Positions 2,344-53,653 of a stretch of 64,000 nt of DNA are shown here, piece by piece; within the stretch, counting starts at the first letter, position 1; each line of letters begins with the position of its first letter. The translations under genes and the position numbers were made by a program. Below the pieces are notes generated by a model that was given only the letters and a program-made list of their open reading frames with translations, made no database searches and had not been told where the DNA came from. The stretch lies in assembly GCF_016026235.1 (NCBI RefSeq), contig NZ_CP065613.1. One strand, given 5' to 3'. This DNA comes from Escherichia coli (GTDB lineage Bacteria; Pseudomonadota; Gammaproteobacteria; Enterobacterales; Enterobacteriaceae).

Positions 2344-3399
2344 TTACGCGCAGATAAAGTCCAGCACGTCCTTCATGCTTCCCTGTTTGTTCATCACGTC
2401 AAAACTTGCGCATTCGGTCTTCTGTTCGTAGACCGTATTCATATTTTCGCGAAGCGTTGTAATACGCTGCACCGCCACGTCTAACTGCCGGGTGCCATTA
2501 ATGGGTTCATAGAAGGCCGCAGCCAGAGAACGCGGTTGATCGGTGCCTTTTTCCGCCAGCGCCCAGGAAGCATAGGCACGGCTGGCAAAGCTATTTTGTT
2601 TACCGGTTGGGGAAACTTTAAGCGCGGCTTCCGTAAAAGCGCGTATGGTCTGATTAGCTAACGCTTCGTCACCGCCGAGGTTTTCTACCAGCAGATCTTT
2701 ATCAATGCAGATATAGGTGTAGAAAAGTGCTGAACCGAATCCGGTTTCTCCGAGATGCCCGGCACCGGCATCTTCAGAGGCCTAGCGCAAATCATCAACG
2801 GCGGTGAAAAAATCATCTTCGACAATCGTTTCACTGACACCAAACGCATGCGCGACCTGGCAGGCGGCTTCAACATTAAACTCAGGTTTATTCGCCAGCA
2901 TACGACCAAACATAGCGATATCTACCGCTATACGGTCTTTACGTAACAACGCGAGATCTTCCTCTTTTGGCGCGCGCTTTTCTTCTGCCAGTTGATGGGC
3001 CAGCGCTTTTACGGCGTCAAATTCTGCCGGGCTGATATGAACTAATTGTTCAGTTTCGGCGTTAGTGAGCGGATCTTTTGGTTTTTTGTCGTTTTTAGCT
3101 TTCCCAAGATAATCCGCAATTTTTGCCGCCCATTCGATGGCTTTTTTCTCTTCGATGCCTTTCTCAATCAGGATAGTTGCCGCCTCACGCGCAATTCGCC
3201 CACTGCGAATACCAATATGGCCCGCCAGTGCCTGTTCAAAAAGTGCAGAAGTGCGCCACGCACGTTTCAGACTTTGTGAGGAAACGCGCAGACGCGTTGC
3301 ACCACCCAGTACCACAGTTTTTGGCGCACCAGTATCATCACGGTTAAGGTTGGCAGCAGGGTAAGCGGTTAACAAATGAAGCTGAATAAATGTTGTCAT
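2344..3399 (-). pseudogene. casC: CasC / Cas7e with an in-frame TAG at 2784..2782 (codon 206 of 351)
   Basis: Track ORF 2782..3399 ends ...FTAVDDLR then TAG; same frame continues ASEDAGAGHLGETGFGSALFYTYICIDKDLLVENLGG... to TAA at 2346..2344; both halves align to one Cas7e (K-12 ...FTAVDDLQEQGSAHLG...NLAQLQENLGG). Confidence 0.85.
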
Positions 3400-3413
3400 G
3401 AGATAGTCCTTTA

Positions 3414-3950
3414 TTAATTTTGTTCGTTATCGGCGTCGCCAGCCTGGTAATATTCCAGTGCCCAGCGGATACGGATAAATTCGGTTGGCCGCTGCTGGCG
3501 GCGGTGATGATTGAGCAGGTCGTCGCTCTCCTGGCACCAGCGGAAAATATCTTCTGCCAAAGAGATAAGATTGACGGAACCGTTTAATAATTTGACCGCG
3601 CGACGTAACTGACGCAGTAAATCATCCGGCGTTTTTACTGCCGACAGGCGAGTAAAACGCCCCTCCGACATTACCGCCGCCAGCTGCGCGGCAAAAGGCT
3701 GCCGTTCATCAATGGCTTTTACATTGGCGCTAACTGCGGCGACCAGCGCCAGTGCGGTAAAACGCCACTCTTGTGCTTCAATTTTCCACAAAGTGTGGGT
3801 CTGCATCAGCAGAGAACGAAACCCTTCTGACAAGCAAACATCATTAACCGTTGTGCTACGCCGCAGACTGGCACGATTGCCGCGTTTAGCCTGCAACTCT
3901 TCGTGCCATTTACGCAGCGTGGCTTTGTGCTCCTCTTTTACAATACTCAT
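3414..3950 (-). CDS. casB: CasB / Cse2 small Cascade subunit, 178 aa
   Basis: Size and position between casA and casC in a I-E operon; sequence diverged from K-12 CasB so the call rests mainly on synteny. Confidence 0.7.
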   Translation of the reverse strand: MSIVKEEHKATLRKWHEELQAKRGNRASLRRSTTVNDVCLSEGFRSLLMQTHTLWKIEAQEWRFTALALVAAVSANVKAIDERQPFAAQLAAVMSEGRFTRLSAVKTPDDLLRQLRRAVKLLNGSVNLISLAEDIFRWCQESDDLLNHHRRQQRPTEFIRIRWALEYYQAGDADNEQN

Positions 3951-5509
3951 TCAGCAGCCTCCTGCTTTTTCTCCCTGGCGGCGTTAGCATTTTGCTTCTC
4001 CGCTGATGTTGTAAAATATTTCTTGCGTGCGGTCATGACGCGTTCCAAATCAACGGGCTCATATGGATTGGTAAAGACACGATCGTCAAAATCCTGACGC
4101 GCGAATAACCACATTTCCTTTTGCCATTTACTGAGTAATTCGTCCGGATCCTGACCTTCTTCAATTTTGCGCACTAATCTCAGGAATCGATGCTGAGTTT
4201 TGTTCCAGAAGTCGATATCCACAAAACTAAAATCACCCCTTGCACCTTTTGGATCGGAGAACCATGCTTCTTTCAATGCACTCCGTAACAGACTTAGAAT
4301 CCGTGAAGCTGTTTGCGCAGCCAGCCGCAGCTTCGGTATCTGACCTTCTTTTTTATCGAGCAGCAGCGGGAAATGGTGTTCGTACCAACAGCGCGCTTTC
4401 ATGTTGTCGAAATCATAGCCAAATCCCCACAGGCCCACTTTTGCCTGCTTGAGACTGCTGGCATTGAAGAGTTTCACCACCAGCGCGGGAAGTTCCGTAT
4501 TGTTTTCTGATTTACCCGTTTCGATAAGGCCTAACCAGTCACGCCAGATTAAACCGCCCGGTTGTGGTTTAACGGAGTAAAACTCGCCACCCTCTTTAAG
4601 TGGTACACGGTAAGGCGTTAAGGGATGCTGCCACATGGCATAATTCGCACCGTAATTTTTGGTCGTCATCAGGCTCAGGAGCGCGTCGCTCTGCTCACCG
4701 CAAATATCGCAGTTGCCGACTGTCGTGGTATTAAAATCAATACGAATACGGCGAGGCATTCCCCAGTACGCCTGGAGTTTATTGACCTGCTCATCGGTTA
4801 CCACCGCACCGGCCAGTTCGCTGGTGCGCGTCGGGCCAAGCCAGGGGAAAACCAGATCGTCAAATTTTTTGGGTAGCGGTAAATCGGCTTCATCCTGCGG
4901 CATGACATTGATCCACAGTTTGCGCCACAAGGGAGTTTGTTGATTACCCTGATATTCCTGTAATTCAATCAGAGTGGTCATCGGCCCACCGCCGCGTAAA
5001 CCGGTGCGGTAGCCTTTGCCACCTGACGGCGCATTCAACTGTAGGGAGAACAGAGCTAACGCAGAACAATGTGGGCACAGGTATTCCGTTACACCACGCT
5101 TGATAAAGTGGTCTTTATTAAACTTCGTTGTTTGAGCGCCGGGAATCTCAGGCAGTAGCGAAGCGACCGGAACTTTATCTCCGGTGAGCGCCTCGAAATC
5201 CTGCATAAATGAAGGGGAATCTGGCCCAAACTGGAAAGCATGTTCTAATGACAGCAATGCTTCCCGTAGCTTTTCAGCTTCCAGTCCGTCTTCCCAGATA
5301 TCATCCCAACGACGATGATCTTTTGGCGCGAAGCTGGTTTGTAGTAGCCCCAGCAAAAACTGCCATACCGCACCCTGGAGATCTGCCCGCGGCGCAGAAA
5401 TATCGACAACATTTTCATCCGCCAGATCGACTGGCGCCAGTTTGCCTGTCGTTCCGTCTTTAAAACGAACGGGCAACCACGGGGTTGTCAGAAGTGAAAA
5501 CGAGTTCAT
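3947..5509 (-). CDS. casA: CasA / Cse1 (Cas8e) large Cascade subunit, about 520 aa; start taken at MNSFSLL (ATG 5509..5507) rather than the track start at 5578
   Basis: N-terminus MNSFSLLTTPWLPVR parallels K-12 CasA MNLLIDNWIPVR; GAGAGG RBS-like motif 6 nt upstream; alternative start MRMNSF at 5515. Confidence 0.8.
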   Translation of the reverse strand: MNSFSLLTTPWLPVRFKDGTTGKLAPVDLADENVVDISAPRADLQGAVWQFLLGLLQTSFAPKDHRRWDDIWEDGLEAEKLREALLSLEHAFQFGPDSPSFMQDFEALTGDKVPVASLLPEIPGAQTTKFNKDHFIKRGVTEYLCPHCSALALFSLQLNAPSGGKGYRTGLRGGGPMTTLIELQEYQGNQQTPLWRKLWINVMPQDEADLPLPKKFDDLVFPWLGPTRTSELAGAVVTDEQVNKLQAYWGMPRRIRIDFNTTTVGNCDICGEQSDALLSLMTTKNYGANYAMWQHPLTPYRVPLKEGGEFYSVKPQPGGLIWRDWLGLIETGKSENNTELPALVVKLFNASSLKQAKVGLWGFGYDFDNMKARCWYEHHFPLLLDKKEGQIPKLRLAAQTASRILSLLRSALKEAWFSDPKGARGDFSFVDIDFWNKTQHRFLRLVRKIEEGQDPDELLSKWQKEMWLFARQDFDDRVFTNPYEPVDLERVMTARKKYFTTSAEKQNANAAREKKQEAAE

Positions 5510-8295: not shown

Positions 8296-8476
8296 ATATT
8301 AAAAATTATCTGTGATATATATCAGCCAATAAAACATTTATATTGTGAATAAATTTATGATTTTCATTTGAAATTCATAATAATAAATAGAGACAATATA
8401 TTCACATAAAAAATATAAATTTAAAAAAGGGTGCAGGAGACCAAACCATCACAATTCAATACGCGGGGTTTTACCC
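8296..8476 (-). promoter_or_regulatory. Very AT-rich region upstream of cas3; probable promoter / nucleoid-protein-bound region
   Basis: About 180 bp of strongly AT-biased sequence directly upstream of the cas3 start; promoter function inferred from position only. Confidence 0.3.
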
Positions 8477-51748: not shown

Positions 51749-52438
51749 CTACTGGATCAGAAAATGACGGGCCAGCAGCGCACTGGTGAAATTTTTCTTC
51801 AAATAAAAGCCGCGCGGCAGCGTCAGAATCCGTTCGCCCCGGGCACCAATGGCTTCGGTAAGCGCTTTCGCATTCGCTGCTTTCGGTCGTATCTGTAAAT
51901 ACTCCCCGTGACGAGCGGTAATCCGCTCAACCTGACCGAGAACAATCATATCCATTAATTCTTCCCAGTCTTCGCGTAGCTGCCGGTCTTCCTCTTCATT
52001 CGGGCTCCACAGCAACGGTGATCCTACGCGACGCTGCGCCAGCGGGATGCTGCGCTCGCCTTCAACCGGTATCCACAGTACGCGTTTGAGTTTGTGGCGC
52101 ACGTGGCTGGTTTCCCAGGTCACCCCGCTATTGCCCGTTAACGGGGCAACACAAACGAATGTTGTTTCCAGCGGACGACCAAGACTATCCACAGGGATAG
52201 TTTTAAGTTCCACGCCCAGAGCAGCAAAATCTTGCTCAGGTTTACTCCCTGCGCTGGCACCTAGCCAGATCTCCAGTAACACGCCAATCCAGCCCTTATC
52301 GCGTTTTAAATTCTCTGGCGTAACCAGCCCGGCAAGTGCCGCCAGTTCTCCCAATGTATAACCAGAAAGTTGCTGTGCTTGCGCTAACAACTGTTCTTCA
52401 GTTTCGGGAGGAGAGAGCAGTGGGCGAGGTTGGGACAT
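51749..52438 (-). CDS. mutH: Methyl-directed mismatch repair endonuclease, 229 aa
   Basis: Sequence and size match MutH. Confidence 0.95.
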
Positions 52439-52623
52439 GTCATGATACCTTGGTTAAAAAACAAACAGCAATTATGTGCCGAATATTCGCAGTGTAACTT
52501 TTTCCACATGCGTTGTTCAATTCTCTGATTTATATTGCTTTTTAGGTTACCGGTAATCGAGTTGCGCAACACTGCAACGGGTTTTCCAAATCTGGTCACT
52601 GAAAATAAACAGGATCTTACACC

Positions 52624-52770
52624 ATGTTATCCACAGAAAGCTGGGATAACTGTGAAAAACCTCCACTACTGTTTCCATTTACAGCCTTGACGTGCGACGA
52701 AACTCCAGTTTTTAGTGGTTCAGTGCTTAACTTAGTGGCACATTCTGTGGATAAATACGGCATTGGTTGA
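52624..52770 (+). CDS. ygdT: Small ORF, 48 aa (MLSTESWDNCEKPPLLFPFTALTCDETPVFSGSVLNLVAHSVDKYGIG), possibly ygdT; below the ORF-track size cutoff
   Basis: ATG-to-TGA ORF in the mutH-rppH interval where K-12 has a small ygdT; no functional evidence. Confidence 0.45.
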   Translation: MLSTESWDNCEKPPLLFPFTALTCDETPVFSGSVLNLVAHSVDKYGIG

Positions 52771-53122
52771 TCTTTCGCCAACCCGTAAATGAGAGGTGTG
52801 ACCTGGGTCACGAATTACTCTTTTTCATTACTCAAATTACATGTAATGCATTGACTAATAATGAATATTTTAAAATGTCTATATCGGGATTATTCAGAAT
52901 GCTCCGGGTTTTCCCGTAGTAATTCCGTAGTTCTTCACAACTCTATCCACAGAAAAGGTGAATAAAAACGGCTATCCACCCCTTCCTCTGTTTATAACTC
53001 TGCACATAACTGTGAGTTATTCAATTGTTATTAGTGTGTAATGCCCTGCAGAGAGTGGTTTACCGTCTTCCTGGAGTATGAAACAATCATTCGTATATAA
53101 AGCTTTATATTGAGGTAGTCCG

Positions 53123-53653
53123 GTGATTGATGACGATGGCTACCGCCCAAACGTAGGTATCGTGATTTGTAATCGCCAGGGGCAGGTAATGTGGGCCCGG
53201 CGATTTGGTCAGCACTCCTGGCAATTTCCGCAAGGCGGAATTAACCCCGGAGAATCCGCAGAGCAGGCGATGTACCGTGAATTGTTTGAAGAAGTAGGAT
53301 TAAGCCGCAAAGACGTTCGAATCCTTGCTTCAACGCGTAACTGGTTGCGCTACAAATTACCGAAACGTTTGGTGCGTTGGGACACGAAGCCGGTTTGTAT
53401 CGGCCAAAAACAAAAATGGTTTCTCTTGCAGCTGGTGAGCGGCGATGCAGAAATCAATATGCAAACCAGCAGTACACCAGAGTTTGACGGCTGGCGATGG
53501 GTAAGTTACTGGTATCCGGTCAGACAGGTGGTGTCATTTAAACGTGATGTCTACCGTAGGGTAATGAAAGAGTTCGCGAGTGTGGTGATGTCACTGCAGG
53601 AAAATACGCCAAAACCACAAAACGCATCTGCTTATCGACGTAAAAGAGGTTAA
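53123..53653 (+). CDS. rppH: RNA pyrophosphohydrolase (Nudix), 176 aa, GTG start
   Basis: Nudix box [22 protein letters not shown]. Confidence 0.95.

Follow-up and report, generated by a model that had tools for sequence, protein, structure and literature searches.

Three DnaA-box motifs in the mutH-rppH interval of Escherichia coli match boxes VI, V and II of DARS2

Three DnaA-box-like motifs found in the window, the 64,000-nucleotide stretch of Escherichia coli DNA analysed here, are almost certainly DnaA boxes VI, V and II of DARS2, the locus between mutH and rppH that regenerates ATP-DnaA from ADP-DnaA. The feature is already known, and finding it in this sequence is a rediscovery that adds nothing new to its identity. 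An earlier note, made from the sequence alone, had proposed that the motifs were either chance occurrences or a binding-site cluster in the mutH-rppH interval. The second reading is right, since a random motif frequency and an absence of conservation are both contradicted: box density is more than 10 times the expectation, conservation is near absolute and three strong ChIP-seq peaks fall on the locus.

DARS2, DARS1 and datA are the three chromosomal loci that set the ATP-DnaA/ADP-DnaA cycle and hence the timing of replication initiation in E. coli, and the loss of DARS2 carries a fitness cost. DARS2 of E. coli K-12 was reportedly first described by Fujimitsu, Senriuchi and Katayama in 2009. 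Later studies of the element include Kasho 2014 (PMC4245941), Miyoshi 2021 (PMC8682772) and Kasho 2025 (PMC11724364).

Assignment of the locus by published oligonucleotides

The source of the DNA was confirmed as E. coli with a 751-bp query around the motifs, which matched 5424 of 5426 complete genomes at ≥95% identity, with mutH, ygdT and rppH annotated under the match in RefSeq. The open reading frames and the RefSeq annotation place the cluster between mutH and rppH (ygdP/nudH), the interval in which the literature locates DARS2 (upstream of mutH according to PMC11317965). The cluster was picked out in the earlier note from raw sequence. The RefSeq annotation of the locus carries no DARS2 feature, and the assignment was therefore made by mapping the experimenters' own oligonucleotides onto the window (Table 1).

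The 455-bp element as delimited by its discoverers is bounded by primers MutH-4, at 52970-52988 (-), and MutH-2, at 52534-52548 (+), both taken from Supplementary Table S1 of PMC4245941. The published oligonucleotides for delta-Core, boxes IV, V and VI, FBS2-5, FBS1 and FBS6 all match the window as well. Compared with MG1655, the element carries four SNPs (52549, 52833, 52857 and 52889; 99.1% identity); one abuts box IV, and the one at 52857, a G-to-A change in the present strain, falls between the 13-mers of IBS1 and IBS2. Over the whole intergenic region there are six SNPs in 684 bp, four of them in DARS2 and none in boxes I-VI. Nothing contradicting the DARS2 identity was found in the sequence of the window. 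A shorter construct, delta-Right, which holds the core together with IBS1-2, FBS1 and FBS2-3, is active (PMC4245941).

The published delta-Core deletion (primers MutH-14/15) corresponds to 52931-52965 and contains three boxes, with I and II head-to-head and II and III head-to-tail, as in the definition of the core given in PMC11724364. The DARS1 core, extracted from MG1655 (L002, 1608-1642), reads TTATCCACT, 5 bp, TGTGGATAA, 3 bp, TGTGTATTA, with spacers identical to those of DARS2, and the third motif of the earlier note takes the position of the DARS1 middle box, the sole perfect box in that core. DARS1 box II is also the only one published as a perfect consensus, again with I/II head-to-head and II/III head-to-tail (PMC11724364). 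The assignment of boxes I, II and III follows from the delta-Core primers, the comparison with DARS1 and this statement on DARS1 box II. Table 1 of the ChIP-seq study PMC11317965 also lists box II, as one member of the double box at DARS2. Because the lambda-Red primers given in PMC4585315 are on one and the same strand, they were not used to define the core, but their homology arms agree with 52931-52965.

Within DARS2, IBS1 and IBS2 are the sole matches to TAANNNNTTGATW with at most one mismatch, and they straddle the segment replaced by the subIBS1-2 primers Ksh-16/19. Their common centre, 52858, is 90 bp from the centre of the core and 92 bp from that of FBS2-3, in line with PMC11724364, where IBS1-2 is roughly equidistant between the two. 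The essential 21-mer with FBS2-3 overlaps the weak DnaA boxes V-b (~52757-64) and V-c (~52768-75), whose positions were taken from the substitution oligonucleotides of PMC8682772, as well as a conserved GATC at 52769.

Table 1. Features of the mutH-rppH interval (window coordinates)
Feature	Position	Strand	Basis or remark
mutH (left flank)	51749..52438	-	ORF and RefSeq annotation
DARS2 per discoverers, 455 bp	52534..52988	- (core first)	primers MutH-4 and MutH-2
Fis site FBS6 (non-essential)	52564..52578	-	GTTGCAGTGTTGCGC from PMC8682772 supplement; 31% conserved
Box VI module	52615..52649	.	TCTTACACC, 3 bp, box VI, 5 bp, CTGGGATAA (reverse complement TTATCCCAG)
ygdT, annotated 48-aa ORF	52624..52770	+	RefSeq; overlaps boxes VI and V
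DnaA box VI (first motif of the earlier note)	52627..52635	+	TTATCCACA; substitution primers Ksh-34/35 flank exact 9-mer
24-bp block between boxes VI and V	52668..52691	.	ACTGKTTYNATTTACAGCCTTGAC; 90-100% identity per base, 50 Enterobacterales
FBS2-5 52-mer	52733-52784		published oligonucleotide match
Low-affinity box V-a (approximate)	52734..52742	-	bases altered in subV-a oligonucleotide
DnaA box V (second motif)	52746..52754	-	TTATCCACA; subDnaA-box-V oligonucleotides alter exactly these bases
Essential 21-mer with Fis sites FBS2-3	52756..52776	-	primers MutH-11, 17, 24, 25
Minimal DARS2 (delta-Right; minimal element 233-256 bp)	52756..52988	-	primers MutH-4 and MutH-11
Fis site FBS1 (non-essential)	52806..52820	.	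perfect match to GNNYANNNNNTRNNC in FIS-1U oligonucleotide, 52798-52828
IBS1	52844-56	+	≤1 mismatch (12/13) to IHF consensus TAANNNNTTGATW
IBS2	52860-72	-	≤1 mismatch (12/13) to IHF consensus TAANNNNTTGATW
DnaA box IV	52890..52898	+	TTATTCAGA; substitution primers Ksh-30/31 flank exact 9-mer
Core box III	52931..52939	+	TTCTTCACA; inside delta-Core; head-to-tail with box II, 3-bp spacer
Core box II (third motif)	52943..52951	+	CTATCCACA; middle box of delta-Core
Core box I	52957..52965	-	TTATTCACC; head-to-head with box II, 5-bp spacer
+46 DnaA box	52989..52997	-	TTATAAACA; one base outside 455-bp element
+74 weak box-like element	53017..53025	+	TTATTCAAT (TTATCCAGA or TTATCCATA in Vibrionaceae); fixed 73-74 bp offset, 1-3 mismatches
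rppH (nudH/ygdP, right flank)	53123..53653	+	ORF and RefSeq annotation

Conservation and spacing of the boxes

Loci from 80 species, ranging from Enterobacterales to Vibrionaceae, were gathered through RppH; 50 Enterobacterales were aligned with the window (51 sequences) and 18 Vibrionaceae were added, giving 69 species in all. In 68 of the 80, a three-box core (at most four mismatches in total, 3-bp and 5-bp spacers) was found, located 154-172 bp upstream of rppH. No core was found within 2.2 kb of rppH in nine loci of the Morganellaceae (Photorhabdus, Providencia, Morganella and Arsenophonus), where mutH is likewise absent, or in one locus from a reduced symbiont; one contig ends 95 bp upstream of rppH, short of the position of the core.

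The mutH-rppH spacer measures 672-712 bp in all 50 Enterobacterales loci. Their alignment to the window has a mean identity of 59%. Boxes VI and V reach 100%, and the three core boxes 92% (I), 95% (II) and 93% (III); box IV is poorly conserved (43%). Boxes V and VI keep the perfect consensus in 50 of 51 Enterobacterales and in 14 of 18 Vibrionaceae. Most of the IBS sequence is also poorly conserved among the 50 Enterobacterales (54%), except for the TAA and TGA bases of the IBS1 consensus (70-100%), and the GATCTTT within FBS2-3 (80-100%) is found in Vibrionaceae too, so that the core, the IBS1 TAA...TGA and the FBS2-3 GATCTTT are all kept at the syntenic position. Conservation of DARS2 in E. 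coli-related gamma-proteobacteria has also been published (PMC4245941, PMC8682772).

The core boxes have also kept their departures from the consensus. Box I ends in a base other than the consensus A in every one of the 69 species, and the first base of box II is C or A in nearly all Enterobacterales. Swapping in the higher-affinity boxes of DARS1 causes excess and untimely initiation (PMC11724364), and the retained imperfections fit this observation.

Spacing is kept as well. From box VI to box II the distance is 314-317 bp in Enterobacterales and 322-325 bp in Vibrionaceae, from box V to box II it is 196-198 bp and 202-206 bp, respectively, and from box VI to box V it is 117-120 bp throughout. 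The distance from box VI to the start of mutH varies from 180 to 214 bp in Enterobacterales and from 46 to 417 bp in Vibrionaceae. Because the distance of box VI to the core is fixed while that to mutH is not, box VI is to be regarded as part of the DARS2 architecture and not of a mutH promoter.

These distances bear directly on a reading in which the boxes serve mainly as operators for mutH, rppH-ptsP or a ygdT transcript, in the way DnaA acts at dnaA, nrdA and polA. DnaA does act as a transcription factor at a number of promoters, and the uvrB promoter region contains DARS1 (PMC11317965). Moreover, the conserved +46 and +74 boxes are located between the core and a conserved promoter-like pair for rppH read by eye (TTTACC at 53060-65, 17 bp, TGA-AACAAT at 53080-88), whose -10 region is overlapped by the Vibrionaceae box TTTTCCACA. 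However, in addition to the variable distance to mutH, a promoter consensus scan of 52380-53180 returned a single site, 52498-52471 (-), which suits mutH and is the sole promoter-like match for that gene, yet lies outside DARS2. The nucleotide-exchange function has been demonstrated both biochemically and genetically in K-12, and DnaA control of mutH or rppH is unreported in the literature examined. We thus consider it unlikely that the boxes are mainly operators, although operator action could be an extra role of the rppH-proximal ones.

Occupancy of boxes V and VI in vivo

DnaA ChIP-seq data were consulted for the locus, where three published peaks are found. They are among the strongest in the genome, with coverages of 78, 199 and 213, compared with 218 at oriC and 213 at datA (PMC11317965). 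Coordinates were converted with the relation that the MG1655 coordinate equals 3022100 minus the window position, validated on the start codons of mutH and rppH. The peak of coverage 78 then maps to 52976, by the core and between it and the +46 box, the peak of 199 to 52794 and the peak of 213 to 52599. This last and strongest one is 28 bp from box VI, which is very strongly bound in vivo in MG1655. A footnote in PMC11317965 gives NC_000913.2 as the reference; the peak numbers fit version.3.

A literature search on DnaA box VI found no paper. Box V has been characterised as the high-affinity anchor for the ATP-DnaA oligomers that evict Fis (PMC8682772). Boxes IV-VI are dispensable in the multicopy-plasmid over-initiation assay (PMC4245941), so two of the three motifs are unneeded for the core reaction. 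This dispensability, and a coverage of 213 at box VI and 199 in the box V region against 213 at datA and 78 at the core, would agree with boxes V and VI being chiefly a DnaA sink, titrating the protein as datA does and standing outside the reactivation machine. When box V is mutated, however, Fis binding no longer oscillates through the cell cycle and extra initiation is promoted if IHF is oversupplied (PMC8682772), a specific regulatory role as opposed to passive titration. Moreover, about 70 species keep both boxes at a distance from the core that varies by no more than 1-4 bp, which pure titration would not require. A role chiefly as a sink is accordingly quite improbable.

The ygdT reading frame and other non-DnaA explanations

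The earlier note had the first two motifs bracketing the small ygdT ORF. This is not the case: both lie inside it, box VI in codons 2-4 and box V near the 3' end, and their translations are the peptides LSTE and SVDK. One could thus argue that a coding gene is what is conserved and that the box matches are by-products of its codons, all the more so as both perfect boxes are inside the ORF and "protein YgdT" is annotated in essentially all E. coli RefSeq genomes. But the frame is open in just 3 of the 51 Enterobacterales sequences, all Escherichia, with in-frame stops in most genera or no ATG elsewhere, and the ATG itself is only 40-80% conserved. The first, second and third codon positions are conserved to 0.69, 0.67 and 0.73, respectively, so third positions are not relaxed, and conservation is concentrated in the DNA motifs themselves. 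Since ygdT is intact in Escherichia only, coding does not explain the conservation, and this explanation is highly improbable; ygdT is probably no conserved gene but an ORF that happens to overlie conserved DNA sites. A literature search on ygdT yielded nothing informative on its expression.

A structured RNA was also considered and rejected: an Rfam search of 52300-53250 gave no match at E≤1 and the single-strand fold of 52600-52700 is unexceptional (z = -1.75). An AAACAG/CTGTTT inverted repeat was discarded as an RNA stem, compensatory changes being absent across species.

Density of DnaA boxes in the window

The positions reported in the earlier note for the three motifs were correct, the second being the reverse complement, TGTGGATAA, and so was the statement that two of them, the TTATCCACA copies, are perfect DnaA-box consensus sequences; the third differs from TTATNCACA by one mismatch. 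The 9-mer ATCCACAGA, common to the three motifs, has three copies in the window, all at DARS2. Absent from the earlier note were boxes III, I and IV, the +46 box and a box TTTTTCACA at 52651-59 (-). It was also silent on the IHF and Fis sites and on the weak boxes Va-c.

The span 52534-52988 holds two perfect boxes and seven with at most one mismatch, against about 0.6 expected. The window as a whole has 6 perfect boxes (2.04 expected) and 61 boxes with at most one mismatch to TTATNCACA, the latter corresponding to 0.43 expected per 453 bp and a Poisson probability of 4e-7 (52536-52988). Dinucleotide shuffles of the region gave 0.62 ± 0.76 boxes; seven boxes were reached in 0 of 5000 and two perfect boxes in 2 of 5000. 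In a sliding scan of the 64 kb, no other 455-bp span contained four or more boxes with at most one mismatch.

Single perfect boxes do occur elsewhere in the window (8344, 13740, 18804 and 50497) and the G+C content of the region is just 39-41%, but the probability that the three motifs arose independently by chance in AT-rich intergenic DNA is negligible in view of the window-rate, shuffle (composition-matched) and sliding-window statistics, of a motif conservation of 95-100% across the 50 Enterobacterales where the intergenic mean is 59%, of box positions and orientations kept as far as Vibrionaceae and of the DnaA ChIP-seq peaks on the locus.

Conserved elements beyond the published maps

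The comparative analysis uncovered several elements that do not figure in the DARS2 literature examined, which excludes the 2009 original: the +46 box, a set of sites around box VI that appears to be laid out like the core, and a 24-bp block located between boxes V and VI. Some of them may already be covered in the original description.

The +46 box has one mismatch in 51 of 51 Enterobacterales and 0-2 in the 18 Vibrionaceae, its distance to box II is 45-46 bp in every case, and its orientation is that of box I. Around box VI, the module shown in Table 1 appears to repeat the core geometry III/3 bp/II/5 bp/I. The partner box 5 bp from box VI is an oppositely oriented 9-mer containing TTATCC. 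Its GGATAA hardly varies among the 51 Enterobacterales sequences, the partner box being 1-3 mismatches from consensus, and in E. coli CTGGGATAA (52641-49) is one base from oriC I2, CTGGGATCA (oligonucleotide sequence from PMC8682772). The left partner of box VI has been called a "double DnaA box" (PMC11317965). The module arrangement is not conserved in Vibrionaceae (n = 18).

The 24-bp block has no second copy in the 64-kb window and showed no codon periodicity, no Rfam match and no promoter call. Sigma-70, sigma-32 and sigma-54 readings of it, made by eye, fail across species, and it was rejected as a promoter.

From Escherichia to Vibrionaceae, the span between box VI and the +46 box keeps its sites, orientations and spacings. 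Over about 70 species boxes V, VI and +46 equal the essential core in conservation and rigidity of spacing, whereas ygdT is not conserved, and the extra elements surpass the essential IHF and Fis sites in conservation. It is possible, and we propose it only tentatively, that the selected unit exceeds the published DARS2, comprising about 400 bp from box VI to the +46 (possibly the +74) box, and has an unrecognised function in single copy. If so, candidate functions would be a second DnaA assembly looping onto the core, or a control of timing linked to the conserved GATC sites. The extra elements are either missing from current models or were scored as dispensable in multicopy-plasmid assays. 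On the strength of the comparative map, it would be worthwhile to study the 24-bp block, box VI and the +46 box in the native single-copy context.

Proposed mechanism

The mechanism has been established by experiment in K-12, including ADP release, a higher cellular level of ATP-DnaA and the requirement for IHF and Fis (PMC4245941, PMC11724364) as well as the feedback through box V (PMC8682772). The K-12 mechanism presumably applies to the present strain, judging from the 99.1% sequence identity and the absence of differences in any named box. In the present strain, ADP-DnaA would accordingly bind the three low-affinity core boxes, and IHF at IBS1-2 (52844-72) would bend the negatively supercoiled DNA so that Fis at FBS2-3 meets the core DnaA complex. 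Fis would contact the two DnaA molecules bound head-to-head at boxes I and II; ADP would leave DnaA and the apo-DnaA would rebind ATP. As ATP-DnaA rises, it would nucleate on the perfect box V and spread over the weak boxes Va-c, and the resulting oligomers would displace Fis, turning DARS2 off near initiation in a negative feedback.

Comparison with K-12 DARS2, DARS1, datA and oriC

Boxes I-VI, the FBS2-5 52-mer and the IBS1 and IBS2 13-mers of K-12 DARS2 are all identical in the window. DARS1, in the bioD-uvrB intergenic region, shares the core layout of DARS2 (box I, 5 bp, box II, 3 bp, box III) and its reaction, the release of ADP from DnaA (PMC11724364). It is, however, only ~101 bp long and needs neither IHF nor Fis, while DARS2 depends on both. 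Its boxes I and II are of higher affinity, box II being perfect, whereas the core boxes of DARS2 all have one mismatch, and it has no counterpart of DARS2 boxes V and VI.

Like DARS2, datA is a non-coding DnaA-box cluster with an IHF site, with cell-cycle-timed IHF binding and comparable ChIP-seq occupancy (PMC11724364, PMC11317965). Its output is the opposite, as it promotes hydrolysis of the ATP bound to DnaA, and its boxes carry head-to-tail ATP-DnaA oligomers without a head-to-head pair and without a Fis requirement (PMC11724364). The origin oriC also resembles DARS2: DnaA boxes of high and of low affinity occur there alongside IHF and Fis sites, and ATP-DnaA binds cooperatively to weak boxes 2-3 bp apart, as it does at boxes V and Va-c of DARS2 (PMC8682772). 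DARS2 differs from oriC in having neither a duplex-unwinding element nor the 13-mer AT-rich repeats, and its output is nucleotide exchange instead of unwinding.

Conservation of the DARS2 core and of the flanking boxes

The published DnaA-reactivating sequence DARS2 lies between mutH and rppH, and we compared it across a species set running from the Enterobacterales to the Vibrionaceae. Mismatches in the DARS2 core boxes were themselves conserved: in 69 species (window 52931-52965 and the fetched loci L003-L082), the last base of core box I was C, T or G, and never A, and almost all Enterobacterales had C or A at the first position of core box II. Box II matched the consensus perfectly in many Vibrionaceae. 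The conservation of these mismatches suggests that the core boxes are under selection for a tuned low affinity.

Another DnaA box, on the rppH side of the core, was kept in 51 of 51 Enterobacterales as well as in Vibrionaceae, and its distance from box II is constant at 45-46 bp. Further on, two conserved blocks at 53055-53090, upstream of rppH, resemble a promoter when inspected by eye, and in Vibrionaceae a DnaA box, TTTTCCACA, seems by the same inspection to overlap its -10 region.

Features of the mutH-rppH region (window coordinates)
Feature	Position	Strand	Remarks
Published DARS2	52534-52988		455 bp
Core-like arrangement around box VI	52615-52649		weak box, 3 bp, box VI, 5 bp, CTGGGATAA
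ygdT ORF	52624-52770		RefSeq annotation "protein YgdT"
Box VI	52627-52635	+	
24-bp block	52668-52691		ACTGKTTYNATTTACAGCCTTGAC; between boxes VI and V
Box V	52746-52754	-	
FBS2-3 (Fis sites)	52756-52776		21-mer
IBS1-2 (IHF sites)	52844-52872		
Core (boxes I, II, III)	52931-52965		
DnaA box	52989-52997	-	TTATAAACA; one base beyond published DARS2
Weaker box-like element	53017-53025		+73/74 relative to box II
rppH promoter-like pair	53060-53065, 53080-53088		TTTACC, 17 bp, TGA-AACAAT; by eye only

The intergenic region has just two GATC (Dam) sites, each of them conserved. The first (52613-52616) is a short way upstream of box VI; the other (52769-52772) falls within the essential FBS2-3 21-mer and the low-affinity box V-c, and Vibrionaceae carry GATCTTTGACCGATC at the equivalent position. 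PMC8682772, the single DARS2 paper checked on this point, contains no discussion of GATC or SeqA at DARS2.

The ygdT frame was intact in 3 of the 51 Enterobacterales sequences, all from Escherichia, and no codon-position conservation pattern was found for it in this set. From these alignments, ygdT looks like an incidental ORF overlying conserved DnaA boxes.

Variation and disruption of DARS2, and rppH loci without its core

The window strain differs from the K-12 reference MG1655 at six intergenic positions (52453, 52549, 52833, 52857, 52889 and 53109). At 52857, a G-to-A difference falls in the gap separating the 13-mers of IBS1 and IBS2, within the stretch substituted in the published subIBS1-2 mutant; the difference at 52889 adjoins box IV. 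An IS4-like element, ISVsa5, was observed inside DARS2 in one complete E. coli genome, that of a conjugation-derived strain (L083, NZ_CP084026.1, ~2955-4560). It is inserted at ~52854 in window numbering, at about the IHF sites, which leaves the core on one side and FBS2-3, box V and box VI on the other.

In the nine loci from Photorhabdus, Providencia, Morganella and Arsenophonus (L038, L046, L047, L051, L054, L056, L058, L061 and L062), the 2.2 kb preceding rppH contained no mutH and no DARS2-like core. As Photorhabdus luminescens is among the species with a DARS2 core homologue according to Kasho 2014 (PMC4245941), DARS2 may be located elsewhere in these genomes.

Four further perfect TTATNCACA matches were present in the window, at 8344, 13740, 18804 and 50497, all of them isolated single boxes around which near-matches never exceeded three per 455 bp. 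Table 1 of the ChIP-seq study PMC11317965 cites NC_000913.2 in its footnote, yet its DARS2 coordinates match NC_000913.3 numbering, as checked using the mutH and rppH positions.

Elements around box VI

The 24-bp block was 90-100% conserved across 50 Enterobacterales, and Rfam, promoter and repeat checks gave no explanation for it; in two genera its central bases can be read as a DnaA box, ATCCACAG. The core-like arrangement around box VI is kept in Enterobacterales and not in Vibrionaceae, and its CTGGGATAA, in the opposite orientation to box VI, differs from oriC I2 by one base.
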